From Patescibacteria group bacterium (lineage in GTDB: Bacteria; Patescibacteriota; Microgenomatia; UBA8517), in NCBI GenBank assembly GCA_022868165.1, contig JALHYA010000017.1:11634-75633 (forward strand): a stretch of DNA of 64,000 nt. Reading direction: 5' to 3'. Shown here in pieces: positions 7,610 to 63,902 of this stretch. How positions within the stretch are numbered: position 1 is the first letter of the stretch; every line of letters starts with the position of its first letter. Under the pieces are notes generated by a model. The model saw only the letters and a list, made by a program, of their open reading frames with translations, did no database searches and was not told where the DNA came from. A program made the position numbers and the translations under genes.

Positions 7610-8143
7610 TTACAGCAAAAATCCAAAAAGGAGAAGAATCCCCGCGTTTGCCGCCAGATATAAATTTGCTTGATTTTTATTTAGAACAATCGGAGTCTGT
7701 CTAAACCAATTTATCAGACCATTTGTCTCCATCAAATCCACAACCTCATCAACTATCAAATGCAGCATAAAAGCCAGCACTATTCCTCTGCCGAATACGC
7801 TTCCCGACGAGGTTACCACCAAAAAGGCAAAAACCAGGAAAATTATCTGGAAAAGGGCGGTGTGGAAAATAAGCTTTGTCCGCTCGTTTCTGGTCTCGGC
7901 AAGCAAACTTAGGCTCCCCCATAAATCGCGTTGCCCAATCATGTGATTAAATCTTTGGGAAACGTATTCCTGCGGCCTAAGAAAAAAGACATAAAGAAGA
8001 TGGTCCAAGTCCGGAAGCATGGTTCCAACCAATCCCCCAACCCAAAACGGCCAATATGAGAGAGTCGTCCAGCCGCGCATTAAAGAAACAAAAACAAAGA
8101 AGGAAACTAAAAAGGAAAAATGGATAAAAATCTCTTTCTTCAC
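7610..8143 (-). CDS. integral membrane protein with PDLDH motif, function unknown
   Basis: 177 aa with 4-5 hydrophobic helices. MLPDLDHLLY is reminiscent of membrane-bound metal-dependent hydrolases (DUF457/YdjM-like). Low functional confidence. Confidence 0.55.
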   Translation of the reverse strand: MKKEIFIHFSFLVSFFVFVSLMRGWTTLSYWPFWVGGLVGTMLPDLDHLLYVFFLRPQEYVSQRFNHMIGQRDLWGSLSLLAETRNERTKLIFHTALFQIIFLVFAFLVVTSSGSVFGRGIVLAFMLHLIVDEVVDLMETNGLINWFRQTPIVLNKNQANLYLAANAGILLLFGFLL

Positions 8144-12352: not shown

Positions 12353-14086
12353 CTAAGAAGTAACTTTCTGCATCTCAAACAGTTTCTCGAGCTCAACAAA
12401 CGTTGTAACCTGGTCGGGGTTCTTCTCGTCCCTAAACCTGATAAGTCTTGGAAATCTTAAAGCAAGCCCAGCTGAGTGCAAGGGGCTTTTAGTAATTTCA
12501 TCGGCCAGAATTTCGACAACCAACGACGGCTTCGTCCAAATATCGGGAGTAAGATTTTTCGGAACTTCATATTCTTTAGGCTTCTGGGTAACTTCCAGTT
12601 TTCTGGCACGTTTGGCCAATTCTCTCCACTGTTCATCGGTTAGTCCCGTTCCGATTTTTGAAACCGTTTTAAACTCTCCTCCCGATTTTATTCCTACCAA
12701 AAATGCCCCGACGCCAAAGCCCGCCCTTTTTCCTCTCCCTTTATTTACTCCCATAACCAAGCAGTCTATTGTGTCGGCAACTCCTTCATCAGTATGTTTT
12801 TTGTATTTGACCCAATGATAACCTCTTGCACCGGCTTTATATGGCGCATCGATTTTTTTGATAACAGCTCCCTCAAGTCCCTCGGTAAGATATTTCTTAA
12901 TTAAATCGCGGATTTTATCGGGGTCGCTTACCAAATTCTGTCTGGTCAGCTCAACCACTCCGCCGTCTTTTGGCAAAGCATCTTCAAGGGTTTTTCTTCT
13001 TTGGTTAAAAGGCATATCTAAATAGCTTTTTCCGTCTTTAAATAAAATGTCAAAAAGATAAAGCCTTAATGGGAAATTCCTAGCCGCCTCCTCTATGCCG
13101 TGCTTTCTTTTTCTTTGAACGGTTTCTTGGAAAGGCAAAAATTTATCGGTTTTGGGATCATAACCGATTGCCTCTCCGTCAAAAATAGCGGAGGTAACTT
13201 TTATTTTTTTGGCCGCCTCGACTAAATCCGGAAACATGGCTGTTGTGTTTTCCAAATTTCTTGAAAAAATGCGTACCTTTTTCTCTTTTCCCTCATGCCA
13301 AATATGGACCTGGGCTCTAAACCCATCGTATTTAGGCTCAACATACACAGTCTTTCCAACCTTTTCCAAAATCTTTTCGGCTGAAGGAAGCCTTTCGCAG
13401 AGAGAAGCCCTTATCGGTGTTCCCGCTTCCGGTTCGACCTCAGATAAACCAACTAGACCCTTTTCTTTAACTCTTTTGGCAATTTTACCGATATCAACTG
13501 TGACATTGAAAGCGCTTTCGATTTCATGTCTGGCGCTCTTATCCCCTTTCGTCATGTACGAGAGGGCGTCTAGTATTGTCATGTCGGAAAAGCCAAGTCG
13601 AAGCTTGCCAACCGGGATTCTGGCTACGTATCGGGCGGATAATGGGGCAAGCTCGCCCAAAAGTTTTGCCATTTTGCTGACTTTTCTTTCCTGACTTCCC
13701 TCCCCGCCCTCGTCGGCAACTTCCATTAACTTTTCAAAAACTTCGCCGACGGCAAGGTTTATCCCACCGCTGGAGGCTAAATCGGAGGCAACGTTCCCCA
13801 AATCTCCCTCTTTTTTATATAAAAGTTTAATTTTATTAATATCCTCGTCGTAAGCTTGGGCGATAATTCTTAACATCATGCGCTCGGCAATATTAAGAAC
13901 AACGCCTTCGTAGTTGGGGGCAAGCTCGCCCAGTACCAAATAAACGATTTTATCTATTTCCCCGGCTGTGGATTTTTTAAATAAGTCCGCAAGAATCTGA
14001 GTAATTTCGTTTCTTGAAGAAGTTTTTTCCAGTTTTTGGAGATAAGCGGCAAGTTCCGAAAATTTCATACCCATATTATATCTCAT
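12353..14086 (-). CDS. ATP-dependent DNA ligase (archaeal/eukaryal Lig1-like, with DNA-binding domain)
   Basis: Adenylation motif I EPKYDGFRAQV. Later motifs FDGEAI, LYLFDIL and EGAVIK, plus an OB-fold C-terminus. The true start may be MKFSEL at 14068. Confidence 0.9.
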   Translation of the reverse strand: MRYNMGMKFSELAAYLQKLEKTSSRNEITQILADLFKKSTAGEIDKIVYLVLGELAPNYEGVVLNIAERMMLRIIAQAYDEDINKIKLLYKKEGDLGNVASDLASSGGINLAVGEVFEKLMEVADEGGEGSQERKVSKMAKLLGELAPLSARYVARIPVGKLRLGFSDMTILDALSYMTKGDKSARHEIESAFNVTVDIGKIAKRVKEKGLVGLSEVEPEAGTPIRASLCERLPSAEKILEKVGKTVYVEPKYDGFRAQVHIWHEGKEKKVRIFSRNLENTTAMFPDLVEAAKKIKVTSAIFDGEAIGYDPKTDKFLPFQETVQRKRKHGIEEAARNFPLRLYLFDILFKDGKSYLDMPFNQRRKTLEDALPKDGGVVELTRQNLVSDPDKIRDLIKKYLTEGLEGAVIKKIDAPYKAGARGYHWVKYKKHTDEGVADTIDCLVMGVNKGRGKRAGFGVGAFLVGIKSGGEFKTVSKIGTGLTDEQWRELAKRARKLEVTQKPKEYEVPKNLTPDIWTKPSLVVEILADEITKSPLHSAGLALRFPRLIRFRDEKNPDQVTTFVELEKLFEMQKVTS

Positions 14087-24811: not shown

Positions 24812-24857
24812 ATATACGGATTCTACCATTATTGAGGCTAAAGAGGAAATTTACTAG

Positions 24858-24936
24858 TGGCTACGAGAGGATTCGCCGTGCAAAACTTAACCTTGAGAAG
24901 CACTATCGAAACCTCGAGTGGCTACGAGAGGATTCG
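24858..24936. repeat. 18-nt perfect direct repeat of a tRNA 3' end (tggctacgagaggattcg at 24858-24875 and 24919-24936)
   Basis: Read directly. The second copy is the T-loop/acceptor 3' end of the interrupted tRNA-like gene. The first copy lies 61 nt downstream, with its T-loop broken by about 34 nt. Confidence 0.9.
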
Positions 24937-25156
24937 AACCTCTGATCTTGCGCTTATAAGCGTAGCTTGCAAACCCTTCGGGTTTATAAGCGAAGCTTGT
25001 GTCGCGAAATATTGGTGCCAGCGACAGGACTCGAACCTGTGACGGCTCGCTTATGAAACGAGTGCTCTACCGCTGAGCTACGCTGGCATATTTCGCGTCA
25101 TGAAATCCCGCTCTTAGGCGATAGCCGCACCTCTTGGTGCACTGAGCTACGTAGCC
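24919..25156 (-). tRNA. interrupted tRNA-like gene hosting tRNA-Met (complex, possibly degenerate)
   Basis: The minus strand starts GGCTACG TA GCTC AG... at 25156 and ends ...AGAGG TTCGAAT CCTCT CGTAGCC A at 24919, giving a 7/7 complementary acceptor stem. The D-loop region is expanded. A complete tRNA-Met flanked by a 12-bp inverted repeat sits in the anticodon region. I could not build a clean anticodon stem. Confidence 0.45.
25013..25087 (-). tRNA. tRNA-Met (anticodon CAT), CCA encoded
   Basis: GCCAGCG TA GCTC AGCGGTA GAGC A CTCGT TTCATAA GCGAG CCGTC ACAGG TTCGAGT CCTGT CGCTGGC A CCA. Full cloverleaf built by hand. Confidence 0.9.
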
Positions 25157-25263
25157 GCGTCAATGCTTAGCTCGCCTAATTCAATTCTGTCCCTTTCGGG
25201 ACACGAATCTTTACCGCTCGCTAGCCTTTCCTTTCAAAATTGCTAGGCAATTTTGGTGTTTAC

Positions 25264-25282
25264 AAAATCGCAATGCGATTTT
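25264..25282. terminator. palindromic hairpin AAAATCGCA-A-TGCGATTTT (bidirectional terminator-like)
   Basis: 9-nt arms with T-tracts on both strands. Lies about 80 nt downstream of the 25359-25428 tRNA on the minus strand. Confidence 0.4.
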
Positions 25283-25358
25283 GAGAGGAGGAGCCGACTT
25301 GAAATAGCTAAGTCCCGACTAAATCGGGACGAAGCGCAAAAGTCGAGCTCCGACGATG

Positions 25359-25817: not shown

Positions 25818-25879
25818 TGTAGCTTATAAGCACAGCTTGTGAGACTTTACTTTAAAAAGTAAACGTCTCATAATATGCG

Positions 25880-25948: not shown

Positions 25949-26815
25949 ATGGCACAAGATACTCTAAAAAACCTGCTACCCAAGTTTGTCGAAAGCTTGA
26001 AAACCAAAGGTCGCTCCCCGTCGACCGTTCTCGCCTATCGGGCAGACCTTGAACAGCTTGTACAGTTTCTATTAAGCAAGAATAAGCCCCTTTCGGACCA
26101 GGTTAGACCCAGCGATTTGGAGGGCTTCCGTGACACCCTTTTGGCCGAAAAATACACTCCCAAAAGCGTATCCCGCAAGCTAAACGCCGTCAAAACTTTC
26201 TTTAGATGGCTGATTGCCGAGAATATTCTTACATCCGATCCTTCGGCTTCCGTAGCCCATCCCAAGATAGAAAGTTCTCTTCCCAAGTTTCTTTCCCAGC
26301 TGGAATATAGGGCTCTTCGTGATGTCGTCCGCGGGGATGTCAGAATAGCCGCTATTGTGGAGCTTATCTTGCAAACCGGAATGAGAATTTCCGAGGTTGC
26401 AAACCTTAAAATCGAAAATGTCAAAGAGAATGAAGCAAAAATTGAGGCTTACGCTACCCAGCCCGAGCGCACCGTTCCTCTAAACAAGCCGGCCAAAGAC
26501 GCTCTAAATGCTTATTTGGCAATCAGACCCGACAAAAACGGCTCGCCGTATGTGTTTGTAAGCAAAACCGGTCATCCGTTGGCAGTAAGAAATATAAGGG
26601 CCGCAATAGACAGATATATGCAAAAGGCAGAAGTTCCCGCCTATTCGGTTAATGATTTGAGAACTACTTTTATAGTCGAAAATCTTAAGGCCGGAGTTGA
26701 TTTGGTTCTTCTTTCCCAAGTAACGGGCCACAAAAGACTTTCGACAACCGAGCGTTATTTGGAGTTAGCCCAAGTCACCGAGCCCGGCAAGCGCCAAATC
26801 CTTCAGGAGCTTTAA
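25949..26815 (+). CDS. tyrosine recombinase (XerC/XerD-like integrase family)
   Basis: 288 aa. N-terminal SAM-like core-binding domain. Catalytic residues in TGMRISEV ... TGHKRLSTTERYLEL (R..HxxR..Y). Confidence 0.88.
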   Translation: MAQDTLKNLLPKFVESLKTKGRSPSTVLAYRADLEQLVQFLLSKNKPLSDQVRPSDLEGFRDTLLAEKYTPKSVSRKLNAVKTFFRWLIAENILTSDPSASVAHPKIESSLPKFLSQLEYRALRDVVRGDVRIAAIVELILQTGMRISEVANLKIENVKENEAKIEAYATQPERTVPLNKPAKDALNAYLAIRPDKNGSPYVFVSKTGHPLAVRNIRAAIDRYMQKAEVPAYSVNDLRTTFIVENLKAGVDLVLLSQVTGHKRLSTTERYLELAQVTEPGKRQILQEL

Positions 26816-26820
26816 AAGTT

Positions 26821-27019
26821 TGGTGGAGCCGCTTGGGACCGAACCAAGTACCTGTTGTTTATGATAGAGCTTCACTCTGACATGTCAGCAAAACCTCTGT
26901 GGAACGGGATGGGATCGAACCATCGACCTCATGTTTATAAGACATGTGCTCTAACCACTGAGCTACCGTTCCATTATTGCTGTCATAAGACAACCGCTCT
27001 ACCAATGAGCTACGGCTCC
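26821..27019 (-). tRNA. tRNA gene split in the anticodon loop by a ~130-nt insert (anticodon CAT or TAT depending on junction), CCA encoded
   Basis: The 5' part (27019->26990) reads GGAGCCG TA GCTC ATTGGTA GAGC G GTTGT. The 3' part (26858->26821) reads ACAAC AGGTA CTTGG TTCGGTC CCAAG CGGCTCC A CCA. The acceptor (7/7) and anticodon (5/5) stems are perfectly complementary across the insert. Confidence 0.72.
26900..26972 (-). tRNA. tRNA-Ile (anticodon TAT), located inside the split tRNA
   Basis: GGAACGG TA GCTC AGTGGTTA GAGC A CATGT CTTATAA ACATG AGGTC GATGG TTCGATC CCATC CCGTTCC A. Canonical 73-nt cloverleaf. Confidence 0.9.
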
Positions 27020-27056
27020 ATCGAGGCTATATTATATCAGAAAGAGGCTATTGAAG

Positions 27057-27908
27057 TTACTTTTTCTTCTTTTTATGATTCACGGCTCCTTCAATCTCCT
27101 CCCAATCTCTTACTTTTCGAATCTTCAGATTCTTTTCCCACATGGCTTTTAAGGCGGACATATCCACACCCATATTTTTGGCAAAACCCAAAAGCGCGAC
27201 TGTATCCTTGGGAAAACATTTGCCACCAAAACCCCGAATTGTTGTAACACTAAGGTGGCTCAACCCAATTCTGGGGTCAGCGGCAACCAGTTCCTTTACC
27301 TCGTCATATTTAATACCAAGGGCGGTACACAAGTCGTACATTTCATTCGCAAAAATGACCTTAGAAGCCAAAAGGGCATTGCTCATATATTTAACCATCT
27401 CTGCCGTGGTTGTATCCGTAATAAAAATTTTTGCTTTTGGTCCCAATAGGTCCCTATAAAGAGCAACCAATCTTTCCGAAACAGACTGGGAAAGGGCCCC
27501 TATTATTGTTCTGTCTGGGTGTAAAAAATCCCAAGGGCCATTGGCTTCAGTTAAAAATTCGGGGTTCATCGCAAAAAGCGTTTCCGGATACTTCTTTTTG
27601 AACGATACCGTTGTTCCGGGAACCACGGTGGATTTTATTGTGAGAATTTTATCTGTTTTCACTATTTTGGGTGCGATTCTATCAACAACCTCTTTGATCA
27701 CCGATAAATCGATCCCGCTGTTGTCGGAAAACATTGGAGTAGGAACACAAACAAATATAAATTCCGACTCGGATATTACTTTTTGAAGCGAAGCAGGACC
27801 TTTTTTATACTTATCCCACCAGAAAATTTCGTTTTCTTTGTTTCTAGCAAAACCTTCTCCGACGGCTTTCCCTACTATCCCCCAGCCGATAATTCCGATT
27901 TTAGCCAT
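27057..27908 (-). CDS. UDP-glucose/GDP-mannose dehydrogenase family protein, short form lacking the C-terminal nucleotide-sugar domain
   Basis: N-terminal Rossmann MAKIGIIGWGIVGKAVG. Catalytic Cys region GFGGKCFPKD. Ends after 283 aa with a KKKKK tail. Confidence 0.75.
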   Translation of the reverse strand: MAKIGIIGWGIVGKAVGEGFARNKENEIFWWDKYKKGPASLQKVISESEFIFVCVPTPMFSDNSGIDLSVIKEVVDRIAPKIVKTDKILTIKSTVVPGTTVSFKKKYPETLFAMNPEFLTEANGPWDFLHPDRTIIGALSQSVSERLVALYRDLLGPKAKIFITDTTTAEMVKYMSNALLASKVIFANEMYDLCTALGIKYDEVKELVAADPRIGLSHLSVTTIRGFGGKCFPKDTVALLGFAKNMGVDMSALKAMWEKNLKIRKVRDWEEIEGAVNHKKKKK

Positions 27909-27922
27909 CGGGCTTTATACTA

Positions 27923-30256
27923 TCATAACTTTGCTCTTCTGATAATTTCGGCATCGACTAGTTTTAGGTCGCGGCCAAATTTGAGTCTGCTCATTTCTTT
28001 TATTATCTCCGACACTCTGGGATTTTCTTCCTCTTTGAGCTTATTCATATCGCGGGTCAAGTCCATAGAAAAAGGCGGAACAGGCTCATTATTAACGGTT
28101 GTCTTGGTGTAAACATGGAACCTGTCGATATTAAGAAGGTCGTCTTCTCCAAAGGTCGGAGTAAATTCGTGAGCCAAATAGCTAGCATCGGTTACTCCTA
28201 CCCTAAAGGCAAGTATGCTTCCGACGTTTCCGAAGACGGCGTTTTTAACCTCTTCTTCCACTTGGCCGATAAACTGGTTGGCAACCGTTAGATTAAGTCT
28301 ATATTTTCTCGCCTCGGAGAGAATTTGGGCAAAGTCGGGTGTCGCAAAATTTTGAAACTCGTCAACATAAAGATAGAAATCCCTGCGGGCATCCTCCGGA
28401 ACATCCTGTCTGCTCATGGCGGCCATTAGAATTCTCGGGACCAAAACAAGCCCCAAGAAGTTGGAGTTCTCCTCCCCTATCGCACCCTTTGCCAAGTTAA
28501 TCAAAAGAATTTTGCTTTCATCCATTACTGTTCTGAATGAGAAAGAGGACTGGGATTGGCCAATTATGTTTCTTATCATTTTATTTGTAACAAAGCGGCC
28601 GAATTTGGAAACGATATAATCCAAAACTTCGGATTTATGGAAGTCGGCTGTTTGGGCAATCTGGTCGGTCCAATATCGTCTGACAATGGGATCCTGAACC
28701 TTGGGTAAAATCTCTTGGACAAAACTTGCGTCCGTAAGAATTCTCATAACCTCTACAAAAGTGCTTCCCGGCTCGCTCATGGCCGTAAGCATTGCGTTTC
28801 TGACCGCGTGTTCAAAACGGGGGCCGACAATTCCGGTTTTATAAGGGTCGAAAAGCTTGTACATCATATTAATTACTGCGGTTGAGACAAAGTGTTTTTC
28901 GTCTTCCGTGTTTGCCTCAAGAAGATTAAGTCCCATTGGCCTCTCCGTGTCCGACGGATTAAAGTAGATAACATCCTCTGCACGTTCCGGCGGAATTAGT
29001 TTAAGCAAATCCTCGATTGCGTCTCCGTGCGGGTCCATAAAGCAAATTCCGCGTCCGGCTTTTATATCCTGCATAATAAGATCCTTAAGAAGTTCCGTCT
29101 TTCCGGTTCCGGTTTTGCCGATAATATACATGTGTCTGCGCCTATCGTCATTTGAGATATAAACTGCCCGTTTTATTCCCCGATAAGTACTTTGTCCCAA
29201 AAAAAGTCCCTCTGTGGGAATTTCTGCCGGTGCCGGGGCCGTCTTGGAATACAACCAATAGATATGCGGGGTTGTTACCTGCTTATTTGGAAAATGATAA
29301 ATAGTTGCCAACTCTTCGGAGTTTAGAATCGAAGGATGGTTTCCGAAAAGATGGAACATCGGCTGATAGCGATAGAGAAAATCTTCCATAAAGCTCCCTT
29401 TGCTTCGAATTTTGCGGCTTTTTATGTTGTTGTTTTCGCTCGCGAACTGGCTAAAGGAGGAGTTGATGTTGTCCAAAATCATTTTCGCTTTCTCGGCTGC
29501 CACGGAAACAACAACTATGCGAATTGAGGTTTCAAACCCGGGCTTGGAAATTTTATTCTCAACAGCCTCTAGGGTTTTCGCACTTGTCGAAAACTTGGCT
29601 TTCTCGGGATCGGACTCTTGTTTTTTGGTATCGGAAATAAACTTTCTTCCGTCTTTTTGCCAACTGCTTTCCACCGGAGACAACAATATTTGAATCGCTG
29701 CGGCTTCCCCAGGGCCCATTTTTGCCATTGCGGAGGAAAGTGAAGAAAGCGGGTCGGTAACCAAATCTTTGAATGTTTTTATGGGAAAGAAGTTTGACTT
29801 GGCAAGCTGCAAAGATTTGTAAGCAACTTTTCCGTTTTCGCTGAAAATATTGTATTCAGGAACTTCCAAAATTTCGGCATCCGAATATGCCCCATGAATT
29901 TGCTTTTCGATAAGGTCCTGCATTCTCTTTGGAGTCCAAACATAGAATCTGATATCTTCTTGTCTTGCTACCAACTCGAAGCTGATTGTGGGTTGAGTAG
30001 AAAATCTTTGCTTCCATCCTCCTTTTTTGATTGAGTAAAGAGATGCAAATAGCTGCTCCATTGCGTCGATTTTGATTTCATTTCCTCGAGGAACGGCAAC
30101 TTGAAGAAGAACCGAGTCTATGGAGCGCTCTTCTCTTCCCCTGAATTTAAAAAAAGTAAAAAAAATGTATGCCAAGGAAACAAGCAAGAGAAAGCTTAAC
30201 GAAATCAAAACGAGAACCAGAAAAATTGCGTTTACATCGATTGTTGCGGGGATCAT
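27923..30256 (-). CDS. TraD/VirD4-like (type IV coupling protein-like) FtsK/HerA-superfamily ATPase with N-terminal membrane anchor
   Basis: 777 aa with an N-terminal TM helix. Walker A IIGKTGTGKT, Walker B LYVDEFQNF, ARKYRLNLTVANQ arginine-finger-like region. Confidence 0.75.
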   Translation of the reverse strand: MIPATIDVNAIFLVLVLISLSFLLLVSLAYIFFTFFKFRGREERSIDSVLLQVAVPRGNEIKIDAMEQLFASLYSIKKGGWKQRFSTQPTISFELVARQEDIRFYVWTPKRMQDLIEKQIHGAYSDAEILEVPEYNIFSENGKVAYKSLQLAKSNFFPIKTFKDLVTDPLSSLSSAMAKMGPGEAAAIQILLSPVESSWQKDGRKFISDTKKQESDPEKAKFSTSAKTLEAVENKISKPGFETSIRIVVVSVAAEKAKMILDNINSSFSQFASENNNIKSRKIRSKGSFMEDFLYRYQPMFHLFGNHPSILNSEELATIYHFPNKQVTTPHIYWLYSKTAPAPAEIPTEGLFLGQSTYRGIKRAVYISNDDRRRHMYIIGKTGTGKTELLKDLIMQDIKAGRGICFMDPHGDAIEDLLKLIPPERAEDVIYFNPSDTERPMGLNLLEANTEDEKHFVSTAVINMMYKLFDPYKTGIVGPRFEHAVRNAMLTAMSEPGSTFVEVMRILTDASFVQEILPKVQDPIVRRYWTDQIAQTADFHKSEVLDYIVSKFGRFVTNKMIRNIIGQSQSSFSFRTVMDESKILLINLAKGAIGEENSNFLGLVLVPRILMAAMSRQDVPEDARRDFYLYVDEFQNFATPDFAQILSEARKYRLNLTVANQFIGQVEEEVKNAVFGNVGSILAFRVGVTDASYLAHEFTPTFGEDDLLNIDRFHVYTKTTVNNEPVPPFSMDLTRDMNKLKEEENPRVSEIIKEMSRLKFGRDLKLVDAEIIRRAKL

Positions 30257-36729: not shown

Positions 36730-37397
36730 TATTTTATTCCCAAAGTAACCGAAATGGTCAATTTTCCGCTGCTTTCGGCAAGTCCAACAAATCCGCTCGT
36801 TTTGTCCTTCTCAAAAGAAATAGTCTGCATTGCCTCTTGAGCAAGCTCGTTGTCTATCTTCCAACCACCAGCCGTAAGTTTATCTTTATAGAATAATTTT
36901 ACTTGGGTCACCGAGTCCGTCGTTTCCCAAACGACAGAAATTCCCTTGCTGTCTTCTCCGGTGGTTGTCCAAGAGGATGTTAGTTTGGCTCCGGGATAAA
37001 TCGGAAAATCGCTTGGGAAACCATCCGGCAGTTTTCCTTCTGCCGAGTAGGAAAACTGTCCTCCCTTACCGTCGAAGCTAATCTTTTTGCCGTCATTCTC
37101 CACCTTGACGTTTTCTCCTGCTGTCTTGGAAAGGAAAAGTGAGAGAAATTTTGAACTGATTTTCCCCCCTAAGCTTCTCCACAAAACCCGGGCCGCAAAT
37201 CCAACCAAAACCAAAACGGCAAGAACCGATAAGAGAATAATCAGTAGCTTGTTAGACTTTTTCTTGGGCTCTTCCTTTTCTTCTTTTTTATCTTCCAGTT
37301 TATCTTCCAAAAGAAACTCACCTCCTACCAAAAAACAATAGTCCAATAATATTATCATGCGGGGTTTTAAGTCAAACCCCGAAAGCCTGTATGACAT
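36729..37397 (-). CDS. membrane-anchored extracytoplasmic protein, function unknown
   Basis: 222 aa. Charged KE-rich N-terminus, one TM helix (LLIILLSVLAVLVLVGFAA), and a beta-rich C-terminal domain (FPIYPGAKL...VKLFYKDKLTAGGWKI). Confidence 0.6.
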   Translation of the reverse strand: MSYRLSGFDLKPRMIILLDYCFLVGGEFLLEDKLEDKKEEKEEPKKKSNKLLIILLSVLAVLVLVGFAARVLWRSLGGKISSKFLSLFLSKTAGENVKVENDGKKISFDGKGGQFSYSAEGKLPDGFPSDFPIYPGAKLTSSWTTTGEDSKGISVVWETTDSVTQVKLFYKDKLTAGGWKIDNELAQEAMQTISFEKDKTSGFVGLAESSGKLTISVTLGIK

Positions 37398-37508
37398 CCT
37401 CCCCGCTTTGAAAAGCGGGGTTTCCTCTAAAGGAGAATGACATATCAGCGTTCAATTCATCCCCTCGACTACGCTCGGGGTTTTCTTGAATGCTGATATA
37501 ATTCTCAT
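37398..37508 (+). promoter_or_regulatory. conserved multi-hairpin element upstream of PBP gene 1 (copy 1)
   Basis: Hairpin CCCCGCTT-TGAA-AAGCGGGG (37401-37420). Box GTTCAATTCATCC (37450-37462). Variable hairpin. Box TCTTGAAT (37484-37491). TGaTATAAT (37494-37502) lies 6 nt from the ATG. A long helix pairs GAGAAT..ATATCAGCGTTCAA with TTGAATGCTGATAT.ATTCTC. Confidence 0.6.
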
Positions 37509-39728
37509 ATGAAAGAAAAACTGCGGCTTGTTTTTGGAAAACTAAGAAAATTTTTTGCGAACGGAAAAAGGATTAAGGCTCTACTTTATTGGGGAGTTGT
37601 AGCCGTGGTCTTGACATGGCTTTTCTGGGGAATACCGCTCCCGACCGCCCTTTCTTCCAAACAAATCCCGGTTTCAACCAAACTTTATGACAGAAACGGA
37701 AAACTGATTTATGAAATATACACCGACAAAAGAAGTACGCCGATTAAACTTTCGGATCTCCCGGCTTATGTCAAAGAGGCCACTATTTCTATAGAAGACA
37801 AAGATTTTTACAAGCATTACGGATTTTCTTTTACCGGCATTGCCCGCGCTGCTTTTAATATAGTTTTTAAAAGAAATCTTCAGGGCGGGTCAACCCTAAC
37901 TCAACAATTGGTCAAAAATGCCCTTCTGTCCCCCGAACGCACGGTCAAGAGAAAAATTCGGGAATTCGTTTTAACAATGTTTGTCGAATCTCTTTACTCA
38001 AAAGACCAAATTCTGGAGATGTATCTAAACCAAATCCCCTACGGTTCAACCGCATACGGAATTGAAGCCGCGAGCGAACTTTATTTCGGAAAACAGGCAA
38101 AGGATTTGACGTTAGCCGAGTCGGCTCTTTTGGCGGGACTACTTTCATCTCCCACGGCATACTCGCCTTTTGGGGCCCACCCGGAGCTTGCCAAGGAAAG
38201 GCAAATAGACGTGCTCAGAAGAATGGTCCAAGACAAATATATCACTCAAGCCCAGGCGGATGAGGCAAAAAATCAGGAATTAAAGTATGCAGAAATTACC
38301 CCTCCTGCCGCTCCCCATTTTGCCCTCTGGATAAAAGAGCAGCTTGCAGAAAAGTACGGAACAAACATTGTCGAACAGGGGGGTTTGAGGGTTACCACTA
38401 CTCTTGATTTGGATTTGCAGGATTTTGCCCAAAAAGCCGTTGCGACCGAGGTTGCTAAACTCAAAGCCCAAAAGGTGGGAAATGGGGCCGTGATTGTTAC
38501 AAGGCCAAAAACCGGAGAGATTTTGGCGATTGTAGGGTCGAAGGATTATTTCGCAACGGATGAGGACGGTAAAGTGAATGTCATCCTATCCAAAAGACAG
38601 CCTGGCTCTTCCATAAAACCCTTAAATTATGCCTTGGCTATAAAAGATAAAAAAATAAATGCAGCCACTCCGCTCGCGGACGTTCCCAGCTGTTTCGCTG
38701 TTATTGGACAACCCATCTATTGCCCCACCAACTACGACGAAAAATTCCATGGAGCGATACAAGCCCGCTTCGCCCTTGGAAATTCTTACAATATACCGGC
38801 CGTTCGTGTTCTTGCCTTAAACGGTCTGGATAATTTTGTCAACTTTGCCAAACAGATGGGAATTACAACCTTTACCGACCCCGCCAATTATGGTCTTTCT
38901 TTAACCCTTGGAGGCGGTGAGGTCCGCCCGTACGATATGGCCGTGGCCTTTGGAGTCTTTGCCAACCAAGGAATCAAACAGCCTCTTATTTCAATACTCC
39001 AAGTAACCGACTGGAGGGGAAAAATTTATGAGGAAACCAAACCTAAAGATGTTGAACTTACGGGCGAGCGTGTTCTTAATCCCGAAGTAACCTTTATTGT
39101 TTCCCACATTCTTTTGGATAATAATGCGCGTTCACAGGCATTTGGCGAAACTTCATATCTCAATGTTGCCGGCCATCCTGAGGTTTCGGTCAAAACCGGA
39201 ACTACCAATGACAGAAAGGATAATTGGACGATAGGATATACCGCGGACGCTGCAGTTGTAGCTTGGGTTGGCAACAACGACAACTCTTCAATGTCTGGGG
39301 CGGTTTCGGGAATTTCGGGTGCTTCTCCTATTTGGAACAGGATAATGAAAGCGGTTTTGGATTCGGCGGAAAAAGGAGCTTACGACAAAGAGGAGGAAGG
39401 ACACGCCTGGCCACACCAACCGTCCGATGTTGTGGGCGCAACAATATGTTCTACGGATGGACTTTTGCCTCCCGGGCCCAAAGACAACCCCGGCTGTCCC
39501 GCACGTTTTGAGTACTTCCTAGAAGGAACCTTGCCGACCCAAACCAGCGGCCAAAAAGCCGATATTCCGATAAACAAGGATGACCATACCGTCTCCGCTC
39601 CCGATACCCCGCCGGACAAGATTGAAACCCAAAACCATCCGGTTTTATATGACCCTCTAAAAACTTTGGTGTGCCTTGACTGTCCGATACCTACAAAAGA
39701 GGTAACAATCAGTTATCCTCTGAGGTAG
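37509..39728 (+). CDS. class A penicillin-binding protein (GT51 transglycosylase + transpeptidase)
   Basis: 739 aa with an N-terminal TM helix. GT51 motifs EDKDFYKHYG and GGSTLTQQLVKN. Transpeptidase motifs SSIK, SYN and KTGTT. Confidence 0.92.
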   Translation: MKEKLRLVFGKLRKFFANGKRIKALLYWGVVAVVLTWLFWGIPLPTALSSKQIPVSTKLYDRNGKLIYEIYTDKRSTPIKLSDLPAYVKEATISIEDKDFYKHYGFSFTGIARAAFNIVFKRNLQGGSTLTQQLVKNALLSPERTVKRKIREFVLTMFVESLYSKDQILEMYLNQIPYGSTAYGIEAASELYFGKQAKDLTLAESALLAGLLSSPTAYSPFGAHPELAKERQIDVLRRMVQDKYITQAQADEAKNQELKYAEITPPAAPHFALWIKEQLAEKYGTNIVEQGGLRVTTTLDLDLQDFAQKAVATEVAKLKAQKVGNGAVIVTRPKTGEILAIVGSKDYFATDEDGKVNVILSKRQPGSSIKPLNYALAIKDKKINAATPLADVPSCFAVIGQPIYCPTNYDEKFHGAIQARFALGNSYNIPAVRVLALNGLDNFVNFAKQMGITTFTDPANYGLSLTLGGGEVRPYDMAVAFGVFANQGIKQPLISILQVTDWRGKIYEETKPKDVELTGERVLNPEVTFIVSHILLDNNARSQAFGETSYLNVAGHPEVSVKTGTTNDRKDNWTIGYTADAAVVAWVGNNDNSSMSGAVSGISGASPIWNRIMKAVLDSAEKGAYDKEEEGHAWPHQPSDVVGATICSTDGLLPPGPKDNPGCPARFEYFLEGTLPTQTSGQKADIPINKDDHTVSAPDTPPDKIETQNHPVLYDPLKTLVCLDCPIPTKEVTISYPLR

Positions 39729-62894: not shown

Positions 62895-63902
62895 TCAGGA
62901 ATCCTTAATCAAGCTCCATGTGGCATATTCTTGGGGAGTTAATCTCAACTTTTTTGATGATTTTCTGCCGTATGACCTTGCAAAATGCGGAACCAAAATG
63001 TGCCTTTCATAGGACGAAATAATTACAGGGTGAATATAATACTTTCTGCATACTCTTTTGGTGTTGCCCAGGTGAACTGAGACCACGGCAACCACTTCAG
63101 AAATATTATTCTTAAGTTCGTTTTTGTCTTTGGCGTTTCCCTTCTTGTAAAGTGAATCCCCCGCCATAACGCTTCCGCCCCAAGTCCGAAAATCTTTTGC
63201 AGAAAAGTCCGCCCCCGTATGGGTTTTCAGATAATCATTTACATCCCCAGAATCCACCACTTGTGTGTTTTTGTCGCTATCGAAATATTGAAAAATCTCA
63301 TATCCGGGAATATCAAGACAGTCTTTCATGGTTTTTGCAACTCTCGAATTTGTCACATCAAGCTCATGGAAAACTCCGCTTTTTCCTTCAAAATTAAAGG
63401 TCAAAGTGTTACCTCTAACTTCTATATGTTTATCGCGCATGGTTGTAAGTCCGTATGACTGGTTTTCCTCGGCATACTCTTTGCTCCCCACCCTTATGAA
63501 AGTGTGTTCCAAAAGCCAAATTACAGTAGCAATGACACGGTCTTTCGTCAGCCTGCGTTCATTCATGTGGGCTTTTACTGTTTTCCTTAAAGTTGGGAGT
63601 CTTTCACCAAAGATTATCATTTGGTCAAATTTATGCTCCTGATTACGCTTTATCCACTCGGGATGATAAATGTACTGCTTGCGACCGCGGTCATCCACTC
63701 CGATTGCCTGAATATAATCCCAAGGATCGGCACTTATGACAACCTCGTGCCATGCGGGAGGGATTGCCAAGCCTAAAACCCGTGCTTTTGCAATTTTGGA
63801 AATGCGTTTTCCTTTTTCATTGATGAAGCCAAAACCCTTATCCTTTTTTATGCGACGCCAGGGAAGATTAGTATCTTTACGATAATGAACCTGAGACACC
63901 AT
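62895..63902 (-). CDS. DNA topoisomerase IB (poxvirus/bacterial TopIB type)
   Basis: LAIPPAW, GRKQYIYHPEW, QSYGLTTMR, FEGKSGV and SAKDFRTWGGS motifs match the bacterial TopIB pattern. The catalytic Tyr region lies near the C-terminus. Confidence 0.82.
   Translation of the reverse strand: MVSQVHYRKDTNLPWRRIKKDKGFGFINEKGKRISKIAKARVLGLAIPPAWHEVVISADPWDYIQAIGVDDRGRKQYIYHPEWIKRNQEHKFDQMIIFGERLPTLRKTVKAHMNERRLTKDRVIATVIWLLEHTFIRVGSKEYAEENQSYGLTTMRDKHIEVRGNTLTFNFEGKSGVFHELDVTNSRVAKTMKDCLDIPGYEIFQYFDSDKNTQVVDSGDVNDYLKTHTGADFSAKDFRTWGGSVMAGDSLYKKGNAKDKNELKNNISEVVAVVSVHLGNTKRVCRKYYIHPVIISSYERHILVPHFARSYGRKSSKKLRLTPQEYATWSLIKDS

Follow-up and report, generated by a model that had tools for sequence, protein, structure and literature searches.

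A tRNA-Met gene nested in the remnants of older tRNA-Met genes, and a family of putative tRNA replacement cassettes in Microgenomates

Layers of the nested tRNA-Met locus

The window, the whole 64-kb stretch of Patescibacteria DNA that we analysed, carries on its minus strand, between positions 25156 and 24919, both ends of a tRNA-Met-like gene around an intact tRNA-Met(CAU); we refer to this site as locus B. The original prediction had described here a full tRNA-Met inside an interrupted tRNA-like gene, a completely paired acceptor and a perfect T arm for the outer gene, a 12-bp inverted repeat clamping the inner one, extra D-loop nucleotides with two hairpins, and two direct copies of a motif on the 3′ side. 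All of its statements on the sequence of locus B were borne out when the sequence was read again (Table 1).

The inner gene, Z, shares 74-88% identity with the tRNA-Met genes found at the same site in relatives and is predicted to be the functional gene of the locus. It is abutted on both sides by the arms of the clamp, which are complementary at 12/12 positions (the repeat search gives 13 nt at 92%), and the left arm forms the start of the innermost cassette directly after the exon end ..CAT. On the 3′ side, the first of the two copies of the motif CAAGCTnCGCTTAT has the place and form of the second hairpin (SL2) and of the YAT/AA junction of other elements (the slash marks the point of interruption). 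It is a direct repeat of the copy at 24956-24969, which is the 3′ end of an older cassette that interrupted the outermost gene, X. A third copy of the motif was found beyond those reported originally. The core of locus B (LE, tRNA and RE) was 88% identical over 106 nt to an element (L123) that is housed in a different, intact outer tRNA-Met.

The 5′ part of X comprises the 5′ acceptor strand, positions 8-9 and the 5′ strand of the D stem. Its acceptor strand is complementary at 7/7 positions to 24920-24926, and the gene shares its initial 16 nt exactly with the tRNA-Met of another locus (L097). The 3′ exon runs from AA through the anticodon 3′ strand GCGCA, the variable loop and the perfect T arm (AGAGG-TTCGAAT-CCTCT) to the acceptor 3′ strand CGTAGCC and the discriminator A; this part shows 88% identity over 41 nt with tRNA-Met 3′ halves (L052/L033; E = 2e-7) and on its own gives a weak local match to the tRNA covariance model (16.1 bits). 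The two strands of the anticodon stem, 5′ GGGAT and 3′ GCGCA, do not pair, in agreement with the original failure to assemble a clean stem, and ARAGORN rejected the spliced outer sequence as a normal tRNA. With perfect acceptor and T stems, an unpaired anticodon stem and a 25-nt insert in its D loop, the outer gene does not have the make-up of a functional tRNA.

Remnants of a middle layer, Y, lie between the parts of X. The 5′ remnant consists of the end of the D loop, the 3′ strand of the D stem and a degenerate anticodon 5′ strand with its loop; it is 1 nt short compared to a normal anticodon arm and is homologous to the outer 5′ exon of another nest (L122; TAAGAGCGtGATTTCAT/GACG). The 3′ remnant comes after ..TTAT/, as do the 3′ exons elsewhere in the family, and its CCC could pair with the GGG of the 5′ remnant. 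The D-loop insert, between layers X and Y, is likely to be the scar of a deletion or insertion, and comparable D-loop hairpin inserts were seen in the outer tRNAs of L122, L008 and L018. The final 18 nt of X recur as a direct repeat 43 nt downstream, and the interval between the two copies opens like a right clamp arm. Because the outer tRNA of L007 has an RE and 3′ exon remnant downstream, the second copy may possibly, and with some uncertainty, derive from a layer older still.

Locus B represents an old stack of no fewer than three layers, and its outer pieces are the remnants of at least two earlier tRNA-Met genes. The stacked insertions and the decaying outer gene that had been proposed as alternatives both apply at once. 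The pattern goes beyond chance, because the outer ends match genuine tRNA-Met genes and the core matches the L123 element.

Table 1. Features of locus B and its surroundings in the window, in minus-strand order for locus B
Feature	Position	Strand	Sequence or form	Basis
Outermost tRNA-Met gene X, 5′ part	25142-25156	-	GGCTACGTAGCTCAG = GGCTACG TA GCTC AG	
D-loop insert, 25 nt	25117-25141	-	hairpins GCACC-AAGA-GGTGC and GGC-TATC-GCC	
Middle layer Y, 5′ exon remnant	25100-25116	-	ends TTCAT (anticodon CAT)	
Left clamp arm, SL1 5′ strand	25088-25099	-	GACGCGAAATAT	repeat search, family covariation
Inner tRNA-Met(CAU), Z	25013-25087	-	intact, encoded CCA	ARAGORN; Rfam tRNA, 69.3 bits
Right clamp arm, SL1 3′ strand	25001-25012	-	ATATTTCGCGAC	repeat search, covariation
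First SL2-type module, innermost cassette end	24986-24999	-	AAGC-TTC-GCTT + AT	
Layer Y, 3′ exon remnant	24970-24985	-	AA ACCCG ...; also hairpin AAACCC-GAAG-GGGTTT	
Second SL2-type module	24956-24969	-	AAGC-TAC-GCTT AT; directly followed by AA and the X 3′ exon	
X, 3′ exon	24919-24955	-	AAGCGCA AGATC AGAGG TTCGAAT CCTCT CGTAGCC A	
Interval between the 18-nt copies	24875-24917		opens GGTTTCGAT AG	
Repeat of the final 18 nt of X	24857-24874	-	GAATCCTCTCGTAGCCAC	repeat search
Third copy of CAAGCTnCGCTTAT	25839-25824			
XerC/D-like recombinase gene	25949-26815			Pfam
Sister locus A, tRNA-Ile(UAU) nest	26821-27019	-		ARAGORN after inner-tRNA removal
Locus A, outer tRNA-Ile(UAU) exons	27019-26985 and 26860-26821			
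Locus A, cassette	26984-26861		124 nt	
Locus A, cargo tRNA-Ile(UAU)	26972-26899			

Recurrence of the architecture at two tRNA sites

The nest near 26.9 kb (locus A), which had been likened to locus B from the outset, is the same phenomenon. Its outer tRNA-Ile gives a perfect cloverleaf in ARAGORN once the inner tRNA is removed. The closest relatives, L054/L055 (recombinase 96-97% identical to that of the window, ~91% nucleotide identity), have an uninterrupted tRNA-Ile, ..CTTAT/AAACAAC.., at the site of the locus A cassette, indicating that the insert is a recent gain or loss at the DNA level; the empty site could represent a precise loss, not a gain. A second pair of empty and filled sites is provided by L071 and L072, within a cargo tRNA.

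Among 133 related Microgenomates loci, the same two tRNA sites yielded about 30 more nests or remnants of nests; the sample is biased to these sites, which lie beside the query proteins, so that generality and target rules are uncertain. The check for conservation in related genomes suggested with the original prediction thus found the architecture in many of them and did not refute that prediction. To recover outer tRNAs, the inner tRNA was deleted and ARAGORN was run again in a mode that permits introns; on the native sequence the same program misses the outer genes because the inner genes mask them. This approach returned nests of tRNA-Ile(UAU) in tRNA-Ile(UAU) (locus A, L007, L067, L071, L072, L102 and L106) and of tRNA-Met(CAU) in tRNA-Met(CAU) (L049, L097, L105, L123 and locus B). 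In the flank tables, nests or remnants of LE, RE or exons were present at approximately 19 of the 67 distinct tRNA-Ile(UAU) loci and at 13 of the 87 elongator tRNA-Met loci. The anticodons of host and cargo matched in all 19 readable cases. The innermost copy was always intact and the outer copies formed a decay series, in which 8 spliced outers are still tRNAs, those of L106, L097, L122, L072 (middle layer) and locus B are not, and many loci keep the RE and 3′ exon alone or the 5′ half alone. No intact outer gene with a decayed inner one was detected in the 133 loci (ARAGORN -i).

The elements share the layout exon ..YAT/GAC-stem (tRNA) stem-GAC AT GTC-hairpin-GTC AT/AA.. exon, with one junction and one orientation across elements that differ in cargo and host. 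The foot AUG-N-C...G-N-C-AU, with an N × N mismatch, is common to both hairpins, and the GAC on both clamp arms results in the A × A mismatch of the family at the second helix position. In an alignment anchored by hand at the helix foot, 87% of the cells of the clamp helix (SL1) were paired compared to 64% in shuffles, changes on both sides were seen in 10 of 11 pairs, the covariation score was reached by none of 500 shuffles, and the second position was unpaired in 12 of 14. The SL2 hairpins folded well below shuffled controls. A MITE of a DDE transposon would have terminal inverted repeats, a target-site duplication of fixed length and many dispersed copies. The termini ATGACAG and CTGTCAT are perfect in L071 and weaker elsewhere, and the AT could represent a 2-bp duplication. 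A generic scan for AT-GNC..GNC-AT hairpins yielded 46 against 23-38 in shuffles, a weak enrichment located mostly at the tRNA loci, and the hairpins are therefore no widely dispersed family of repeats within the DNA sampled. A function of TGACATGT as a promoter -35 was rejected since the distance between it and the -10-like ..CATAA ranges between 13 and 20 nt, and a TA target duplication of the Tc1/IS630 type is incompatible with the ..TTATG and ..CATAA junctions.

Proposed replacement cassettes and competing readings

What the comparison demonstrates is a recurrent architecture, covariation, a polymorphism between empty and filled sites, the matching of anticodons and a series of decay. The explanation that we consider probable is that of non-autonomous mobile cassettes that target the anticodon loop of a cognate tRNA gene and replace that gene. 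Locus B would be the old, multi-layered product of small (~100-250 bp) non-coding insertion cassettes, each made of a complete tRNA gene in a covarying clamp (SL1) followed by a short hairpin (SL2). A cassette would enter, in a single orientation, the anticodon loop of a resident tRNA gene whose anticodon is that of the cargo. The insertion point would fall in the AT of positions 35-36 or after it, in ..T-N-A-T/A-A..., and the resident gene would be split. The inner tRNA would be transcribed from the resident promoter, freed by ordinary end processing and assume the function, and the outer gene would become a decaying pseudogene or be re-invaded through its successor, giving rise to Russian-doll stacks. 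The outer copies would be non-functional. Mobility would depend on a trans-acting, site-specific enzyme recognising a folded single strand, for which the candidates are an HUH-type ssDNA transposase and a recombinase that crosses over at an AT. No transposase, RNA ligase or endonuclease was identified by Pfam in the ~50 scanned ORFs (at least 100 aa) of the window, where a conserved Xer-like recombinase was the sole such match, and our searches found no gene (transposase, recombinase or nuclease) tied to the cassettes. Regular expressions for interrupted tRNA 5′ halves with long ORF-bearing inserts found no autonomous version, and viral contigs scanned with the conserved SL2 sequence gave 0 matches.

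The same inserts could instead be introns of a new bacterial type that house a second tRNA, so that the exons are ligated and outer and inner tRNAs are both made, the transcript being cut at the AUG-N-C/G-N-C-AU helices by, for example, an RNase III-like enzyme that leaves 2-nt staggered ends. We regard this as unlikely. The insert position in the anticodon loop is constant, and 8 outers have perfect cloverleaves, some with encoded CCA, as a spliced gene would look. In L071, the junctions AUGACAG and CUGUCAU could form a perfect helix in which they would be staggered by 2 bp, as RNase III cleavage would leave them. Moreover, G.U pairs are tolerated in the sense-strand helices (4 G.T versus 1 A.C), and Patescibacteria are unusually rich in tRNA introns (PMC13011429).

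Several observations oppose splicing. Group I introns are recognised by a detectable P3-P9 catalytic core and usually exceed 180 nt; outside the inner tRNA the inserts hold 12 + 57 nt (locus B) and 12 + 38 nt (locus A). In 516 bp and in 4 kb, Intron_gpI gave no match with the cut-off relaxed to E ≤ 10, and Rfam, run on 64 kb, 4 kb and 516 bp with the gathering threshold and with E ≤ 10, returned three plain tRNAs and the weak 3′-half match alone. A group I intron needs a U at the end of the 5′ exon (U.G in P1) and a terminal G, whereas the insert ends in ..YAT, with U as the terminal nucleotide, and inserts of the L049 type come after A35. The tRNA-Met1 of L006, in contrast, has an intron that ends in G after exon U33. 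The bulge-helix-bulge (BHB) reading was also rejected, since the junctions of the 12 nests inspected are not in 3-nt bulges with a 4-bp helix between them; they are placed within a continuous helix (AUGAC.. and ..GUCAU) or at its end, or beside an 8-nt/3-nt asymmetric loop (L049). Pfam showed neither a splicing endonuclease nor an RNA ligase among the scanned ORFs of the window, which covers ~6% of a genome. The outers decay freely and the innermost copy never does, the outer anticodon stem of locus B cannot pair, and at T-loop position 58, which is conserved, the outer gene of locus A carries a G and the intact gene of L054 an A. The intron reading implied in the original prediction is thus without support, and these features lead us to disfavour splicing of the outer tRNA. 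It is improbable that the cassettes are a third bacterial intron type, religated by a protein pathway and yielding two same-anticodon tRNAs per transcript.

It is similarly doubtful that the nests are scars of ordinary recombination with no dedicated element, in which DNA uptake followed by homology-facilitated illegitimate recombination, or else unequal recombination or the conversion of one tRNA paralogue by another, left pieces of tRNA around the present gene. Between relatives, tRNA genes at the site are swapped or inverted and the flanks persist, a chimeric deletion in L072 shows recombination between nested copies, and orphan halves exist (L006). However, these processes fail to explain the constant junction and orientation, the GAC/GTC feet with their mismatch, the covarying clamp and SL2, and they leave unexplained how 124 nt could be inserted cleanly and the exons stay unchanged. 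One crossover between homologous tRNAs would give tandem chimeras, not nests.

Site-specific integration by the neighbouring tyrosine recombinase, either through att-site duplications of an island or through Xer/dif-type (IMEX-like) insertion, is very unlikely, even though the XerC/D-like gene lies between the two nested loci, the end of the outer gene of locus B is repeated downstream and tRNA anticodon loops are frequent targets of integrases. In 80 loci, some with nests and some without, the recombinase gene is syntenic and 75-97% identical, and so resembles a housekeeping gene. The cassettes measure 100-250 bp and are devoid of ORFs, their junctions share AT alone and not the required 6-8-bp overlap, and the inverted arms at the internal palindrome span ~5 bp. 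Being present without insertions, and with no recombinase found within 4 kb of the L049 nest, the Xer-like neighbour is disfavoured as the agent. Finally, an assembly or chimera artefact across similar tRNA genes of a metagenome is hardly conceivable, for conserved tRNA segments can mislead assemblers but an independent assembly (Logan contig L001) contains the region in identical form, the same architecture occurs in dozens of contigs from many separate studies, unrelated projects and assemblers, and chimeras do not yield structured, covarying flanks.

Significance and relation to known systems

An insert family in Microgenomates (CPR) that splits a tRNA gene and delivers its replacement is apparently undescribed; our literature search on nested, embedded or disrupted tRNAs in CPR returned nothing relevant beyond group I introns. 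If the replacement reading is correct, it would reveal a new route of tRNA turnover in which a single-copy essential gene is invaded by its own replacement, the old gene rots around the new one, and the new one is the next target. The cassettes would explain why close CPR genomes have the same promoter and flanks but different tRNA-Ile or tRNA-Met genes, and also annotation artefacts such as tRNA halves scattered at these loci, which tRNA finders that suppress overlaps miss or mislabel. The implied enzyme would direct DNA to a single phosphodiester in a hairpin loop, which is of interest for mobile elements and possibly as a tool, and the strategy would be one of minimal addiction, as loss of the element requires precise excision. 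The less likely splicing reading, if true, would mean a protein-dependent tRNA splicing pathway in Bacteria, a larger consequence still.

Archaeal BHB introns, with proposed transposition in Thermoproteales and with split and permuted tRNAs, are like the cassettes in being short, protein-free inserts in or near the anticodon loop that have flanking complementarity, are gained and lost between relatives and can stack in one tRNA. The cassettes differ in being bacterial, in having no two 3-nt bulges 4 bp apart and in holding a whole second tRNA; the decay of the outers makes splicing doubtful, and neither EndA nor RtcB was found in the 64-kb window. Group I introns occupy tRNA anticodon loops in Patescibacteria and Cyanobacteria (PMC13011429), thus the same phylum and the same loop (positions 33/34 and 35/36). 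In relatives of the window genome, the neighbouring initiator-like tRNA-Met is interrupted by a group I-like intron. Unlike group I introns, the cassettes (124 nt at locus A, of which 74 are tRNA) have tRNA cargo instead of a ribozyme core, with no terminal G, exon-terminal U.G pair or Rfam match.

Genomic islands and prophages integrate into tRNA genes by means of tyrosine integrases and restore them with a copied 3′ segment. The cassettes likewise use a tRNA gene as a safe landing site, with the damage compensated and the anticodon loop as a target. In contrast to islands, a cassette is tiny, carries no integrase and brings a whole tRNA rather than a 3′ segment, the old gene stays split around the new one, and there are no att repeats beyond AT, the sole att-like feature being the 18-nt repeat downstream of X. 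An integron gene cassette, which has an attC site with R''/L''-L'/R' boxes beside an intI/attI platform, was rejected as a model: GTTRRRY core sites are missing, the recombinase is Xer-like by Pfam and convergent to the tRNA-Ile, and nests also occur away from any recombinase.

The palindrome-associated elements derived from IS200/IS605 and the REP/RAYT elements are non-autonomous and bounded by hairpins with mismatched feet, and lie in one orientation beside a short specific sequence with no clear target duplication and with precise empty sites. The cassettes show hairpins, one orientation and a ..YAT/ target, and their AT repeat is compatible with a duplication or with none. They differ from IS200/IS605 in that their cleavage points abut the hairpin feet and are not 10-19 nt away, a spacing unlike that of IS608, their hairpins have opposite foot polarity (GAC..GAC versus GTC..GTC), and the tRNA cargo sits in the loop of the left hairpin; Pfam identified no TnpA, RAYT or Y1 transposase in the 64-kb window. 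Compared to homing-type selfish elements, the cassettes have no homing endonuclease gene, and no co-conversion was seen in the exons beside the insert (window versus L054). They would nevertheless share with such elements a cycle of invasion, fixation, decay and re-invasion, and, as with addiction-type elements, they would be indispensable as the sole working copy of a single-copy tRNA.

Anatomy of locus B

Plain tRNA genes were called with ARAGORN and Rfam, and the whole window holds three. The original prediction had described locus B, a broken tRNA-Met-like gene with a tRNA-Met nested in it, correctly base for base: the outer ends, the clamp, the inner tRNA and the repeated motif were all confirmed in the sequence. 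A third copy of the motif and a repeat of the outer gene's final 18 nt had been overlooked.

Features of locus B and the plain tRNA genes of the window
Feature	Position	Strand	Called by
tRNA-Ile(UAU)	26972-26899	-	ARAGORN, Rfam
Third copy of the CAAGCTnCGCTTAT motif	25839-25824	-	
Initiator-like tRNA-Met (Met1)	25428-25359	-	ARAGORN, Rfam
Outer gene 5′ start, GGCTACG TA GCTC AG	from 25156	-	
Extra D-loop sequence, 25 nt	25141-25117	-	
Clamp arms GACGCGAAATAT and ATATTTCGCGAC, enclosing the inner tRNA-Met	25099-25088 and 25012-25001	-	
Inner tRNA-Met(CAU)	25087-25013	-	ARAGORN, Rfam (69.3 bits)
Motif CAAGCTnCGCTTAT, two copies	24999-24986 and 24969-24956	-	
Outer gene 3′ end, AGAGG TTCGAAT CCTCT CGTAGCC A	ends 24919	-	
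Repeat of the outer gene's final 18 nt	24874-24857	-	

Over 41 nt, the outer 3′ part shares 88% identity with the tRNA-Met of the related loci L052 and L033; it scores 16 bits with the tRNA model and, judged by its sequence, is a genuine tRNA-Met 3′ half. As originally noted, there is no clean outer anticodon stem: GGGAT cannot pair with GCGCA, and ARAGORN did not accept the spliced outer sequence as a tRNA. The core of the locus (left end, tRNA and right end) shares 88% identity over 106 nt with an element in L123, whose own host is an intact outer tRNA-Met different from that of locus B.

Both CAAGCTnCGCTTAT copies within the locus are modules of the SL2 type, the short 3′ hairpin of these inserts, with AAGC-NNN-GCTT followed by AT/AA. 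The first is followed by AA ACCCG..., in part complementary to the GGG of a 5′ remnant, TAAGAGCGGGATTTCAT, that is homologous to the outer 5′ exon of L122, and the second by a complete 3′ exon with an acceptor strand matching GGCTACG. Two such modules, each with its own 3′ exon sequence, imply at least three layers. Layer X is the outermost, with only its ends left; the middle layer Y would consist of the anticodon-arm remnants, an assignment that we infer; and layer Z is the intact inner tRNA-Met gene. The extra D-loop sequence probably marks a scar left between X and Y, and the 18-nt repeat, which follows a right-arm-like GGTTTCGAT AG, could represent a fourth layer. Stacked insertions and a decaying outer gene had been offered as alternatives; both were right.

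Several outer tRNAs have an additional GC-rich hairpin within the D loop or directly behind it (window 25117-25141; L122 ~805-835; L008 ~7625-7650; L018 ~2222-2255), which may be a second type of small insertion or a recombination scar. The SL2 position of locus B is taken by the motif CAAGCTnnGCTTATAA, which recurs in the window (24956-24969, 24986-24999 and 25824-25839), in L006 (2725-2745) and in L007 (6900-6940). Because it ends 7 nt ahead of the DivIC start codon in the third window copy, and 7-8 nt ahead of tRNA 5′ ends in L006 and L007, the motif resembles a compact promoter of the extended -10 type, and DivIC may lack a leader.

A family of tRNA-carrying cassettes

The search for further tRNA-in-tRNA cases uncovered a family. 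In a survey of 133 loci (52 species representatives and 80 metagenome contigs fetched via the recombinase), deletion of the inner tRNA followed by an intron-permitting search recovered Ile-in-Ile nests in L007, L067, L071, L072, L102 and L106 and Met-in-Met nests in L049, L097, L105 and L123. Inspection of all flanks added nests in L008/L124, L121, L122 and L018, together with many partial cases retaining only the right end and 3′ exon or only the 5′ half. In total, nests and remnants affect ~19 of the 67 distinct tRNA-Ile(UAU) loci and 13 of the 87 loci for elongator tRNA-Met. The anticodon of the 5′ exon equals that of the cargo, the tRNA inside the insert, in all 19 readable cases; these may simply be the survivors, because a mismatched insertion would remove an essential single-copy tRNA.

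The whole inserts, or cassettes, share the layout exon ..T-N-A-T / G-A-C-stem (0-5 nt) tRNA (0-5 nt) stem-G-A-C A-T G-T-C-hairpin-G-T-C A-T / A-A.. exon, in which AT occurs three times, leaving 34/35, 35/36 and 36/37 as possible breakpoints. The clamp helix around the cargo, SL1, covaries. Across 14 elements aligned by anchoring at the helix foot, 87% of cells were paired, compared to 64% in shuffles and 37-46% with the partner slid; both sides had changed in 10 of 11 pairs, and the observed score was reached by none of 500 shuffles. Twelve of the 14 have a purine-purine mismatch at the second position. SL2 folds as AUG-U-C...G-U-CAU with energies far under those of shuffled controls. The outer ends of the L071 cassette, ATGACAG and CTGTCAT, are perfect inverted repeats, with the palindrome CTGAyATGTCAG at its centre. 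The Roizmanbacteria Met-in-Met nest L049 (9436-9621) is a variant with an unambiguous junction at 35/36, a two-part clamp, an intact outer gene with CCA, and neither GAC feet nor SL2.

An intergenic hairpin module with a cassette-type foot (ATGAC...GACAT) lies at 37391-37443 in the window, just upstream of the TTGAAT-17-TATAAT promoter of a penicillin-binding-protein gene (37509-39728). It has homologues in part of the L007 insert and in a module 5′ of the tRNA-Ile in L061.

Empty sites and decay of the outer copies

Deleting the inner tRNA-Ile from the sister locus A (27019-26821, minus strand) gave a perfect outer tRNA-Ile(UAU) in ARAGORN, with the insert after ..CTTAT, and L026 carries an uninterrupted homologue of this outer gene. 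In the nearest relatives, L054 and L055 (recombinase 96-97% identical, flanks ~91% at the nucleotide level), the outer gene is intact in the same place and behind the same promoter (GGTTGTCTTAT/AAACAAC); the window is set apart by a clean insert of 124 nt (26984-26861). This is an empty/filled site polymorphism at the DNA level. A single change is seen in the outer T loop, G where L054 and L055 have the conserved A58, and locus A is apparently a clean, recent nest. Among relatives, promoter and flanks at this site persist while the tRNA genes are exchanged or inverted (L058 4877-4950 vs window 26985-27089; L002, L007, L009, L013, L017, L026), consistent with repeated replacement; L058 has the window's promoter with a different tRNA-Ile, and L002 has its Met genes on the opposite strand.

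When spliced in silico, 8 outer genes were still recognized as tRNA, and those of L106, L097, L122, the L072 middle layer and locus B failed. L072 corresponds to L071 once its cargo tRNA had been invaded again and a deletion had joined the D arm of the outer gene to the anticodon arm of the middle one. In L007 and L121, older right ends with 3′ exons lie downstream of the outer genes, and in L005, L109/110, L071-Met, L102-Met, L120 and L130 only right-end remnants are left, behind a tRNA with its own promoter. None of the 133 loci has an intact interrupted gene around a decayed inner tRNA. Decay confined to the outers, rather than striking either copy, argues against both copies being functional and redundant; the outer copies are not maintained. 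The outer tRNA might in principle be spliced, and the junction helix of L071 shows a 2-bp stagger resembling that of RNase III, but the decay pattern and the unpaired outer stem of locus B are both at odds with splicing. The intron reading of the original prediction is unsupported.

Neighbourhood, candidate mechanism and known systems

Locus B has bacterial genes as neighbours (FtsH, DivIC, Fpg, TrpRS and a Xer-like recombinase); for TrpRS, the best matches among species representatives come from Microgenomates/Woesebacteria MAGs and do not exceed 70% identity. The order UDP-glucose dehydrogenase, tRNA-Ile(UAU), Xer-like recombinase, DivIC, Met1, elongator tRNA-Met, TrpRS is widely conserved. 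L003 and L005 have plain tRNAs, and their second tRNA-Met directly abuts Met1, without the conserved structured spacer found directly 3′ of Met1 elsewhere (window 25157-25358, minus strand; L018 1999-2205; L054 424-525; L006 5134-5232; L132 3190-3279). This spacer forms a long hairpin around a second hairpin, then one or two CAAAAT..ATTTTG hairpins; RNAalifold gave 28 pairs, 9 with compensatory changes, and no Rfam family matched. In this lineage AUA appears to be decoded by a tRNA-Ile with anticodon UAU (window 26899-26972), found at almost all related loci; this suggests independence of lysidine-modified tRNA-Ile2.

The cassettes differ in presence or absence at the DNA level, with constant site and orientation. 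Their hairpins are selected for pairing, with a conserved mismatch and a conserved GAC/GTC on one strand, which together point to a protein that reads single-stranded DNA or RNA in folded form rather than to a duplex-binding transposase. A trans-acting enzyme would place the cassette beside ..YAT of the anticodon loop; among candidates, we favour a single-strand mechanism of the HUH type or a recombinase that crosses over at AT. No such enzyme was found in a Pfam scan of about 50 window ORFs or among related loci searched for ORF-bearing inserts. The neighbouring Xer-like recombinase is disfavoured as the agent, since its gene is syntenic whether insertions are present or not, the junctions lack a 6-8-bp overlap, and L049 has peptidase and glycosyltransferase neighbours and no recombinase nearby. 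This XerC/D-like gene (25949-26815, plus strand), 75-97% identical across 80 metagenome loci (L054-L133) and always between tRNA-Ile and divIC, looks like a housekeeping gene and not part of a mobile element. The window also codes for a type IB topoisomerase (62895-63902), an ATP-dependent DNA ligase (12353-14086) and a TrwB/TraG-like coupling ATPase (27923-30256), with no link to the cassettes shown.

Locus B is an aged member of an apparently new class of tRNA-carrying insertion cassettes that target the anticodon loop. We consider the descriptive model of the cassettes highly probable, and its combination with DNA-level mobility and non-function of the outers somewhat favoured.

Bacterial tRNA introns reported to date are group I or, rarely, group II (PMC13011429). 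Met1 is uninterrupted in the window; in many relatives it is split at 33/34 by a 175-266-nt insert (L006 5286-5622, L045 8841-9100, L004 ~2463-2790 and ~20 metagenome loci, e.g. L056, L057, L068-L073) bearing hallmarks of group I introns (a U in the exon and a terminal G, with a GTAGAGACTA core in L006), and ARAGORN mislabels these genes tRNA-Leu(caa) or tRNA-Ser(cga). The cassettes failed the group I test and also the BHB intron test, and integrase islands and integron cassettes were rejected. The full-text literature searched, with subscription journals mostly beyond reach, held no report of a tRNA nested within a tRNA in bacteria, and an earlier description is possible. Among known elements, those of the IS200/IS605/REP type are a loose match to the cassettes.
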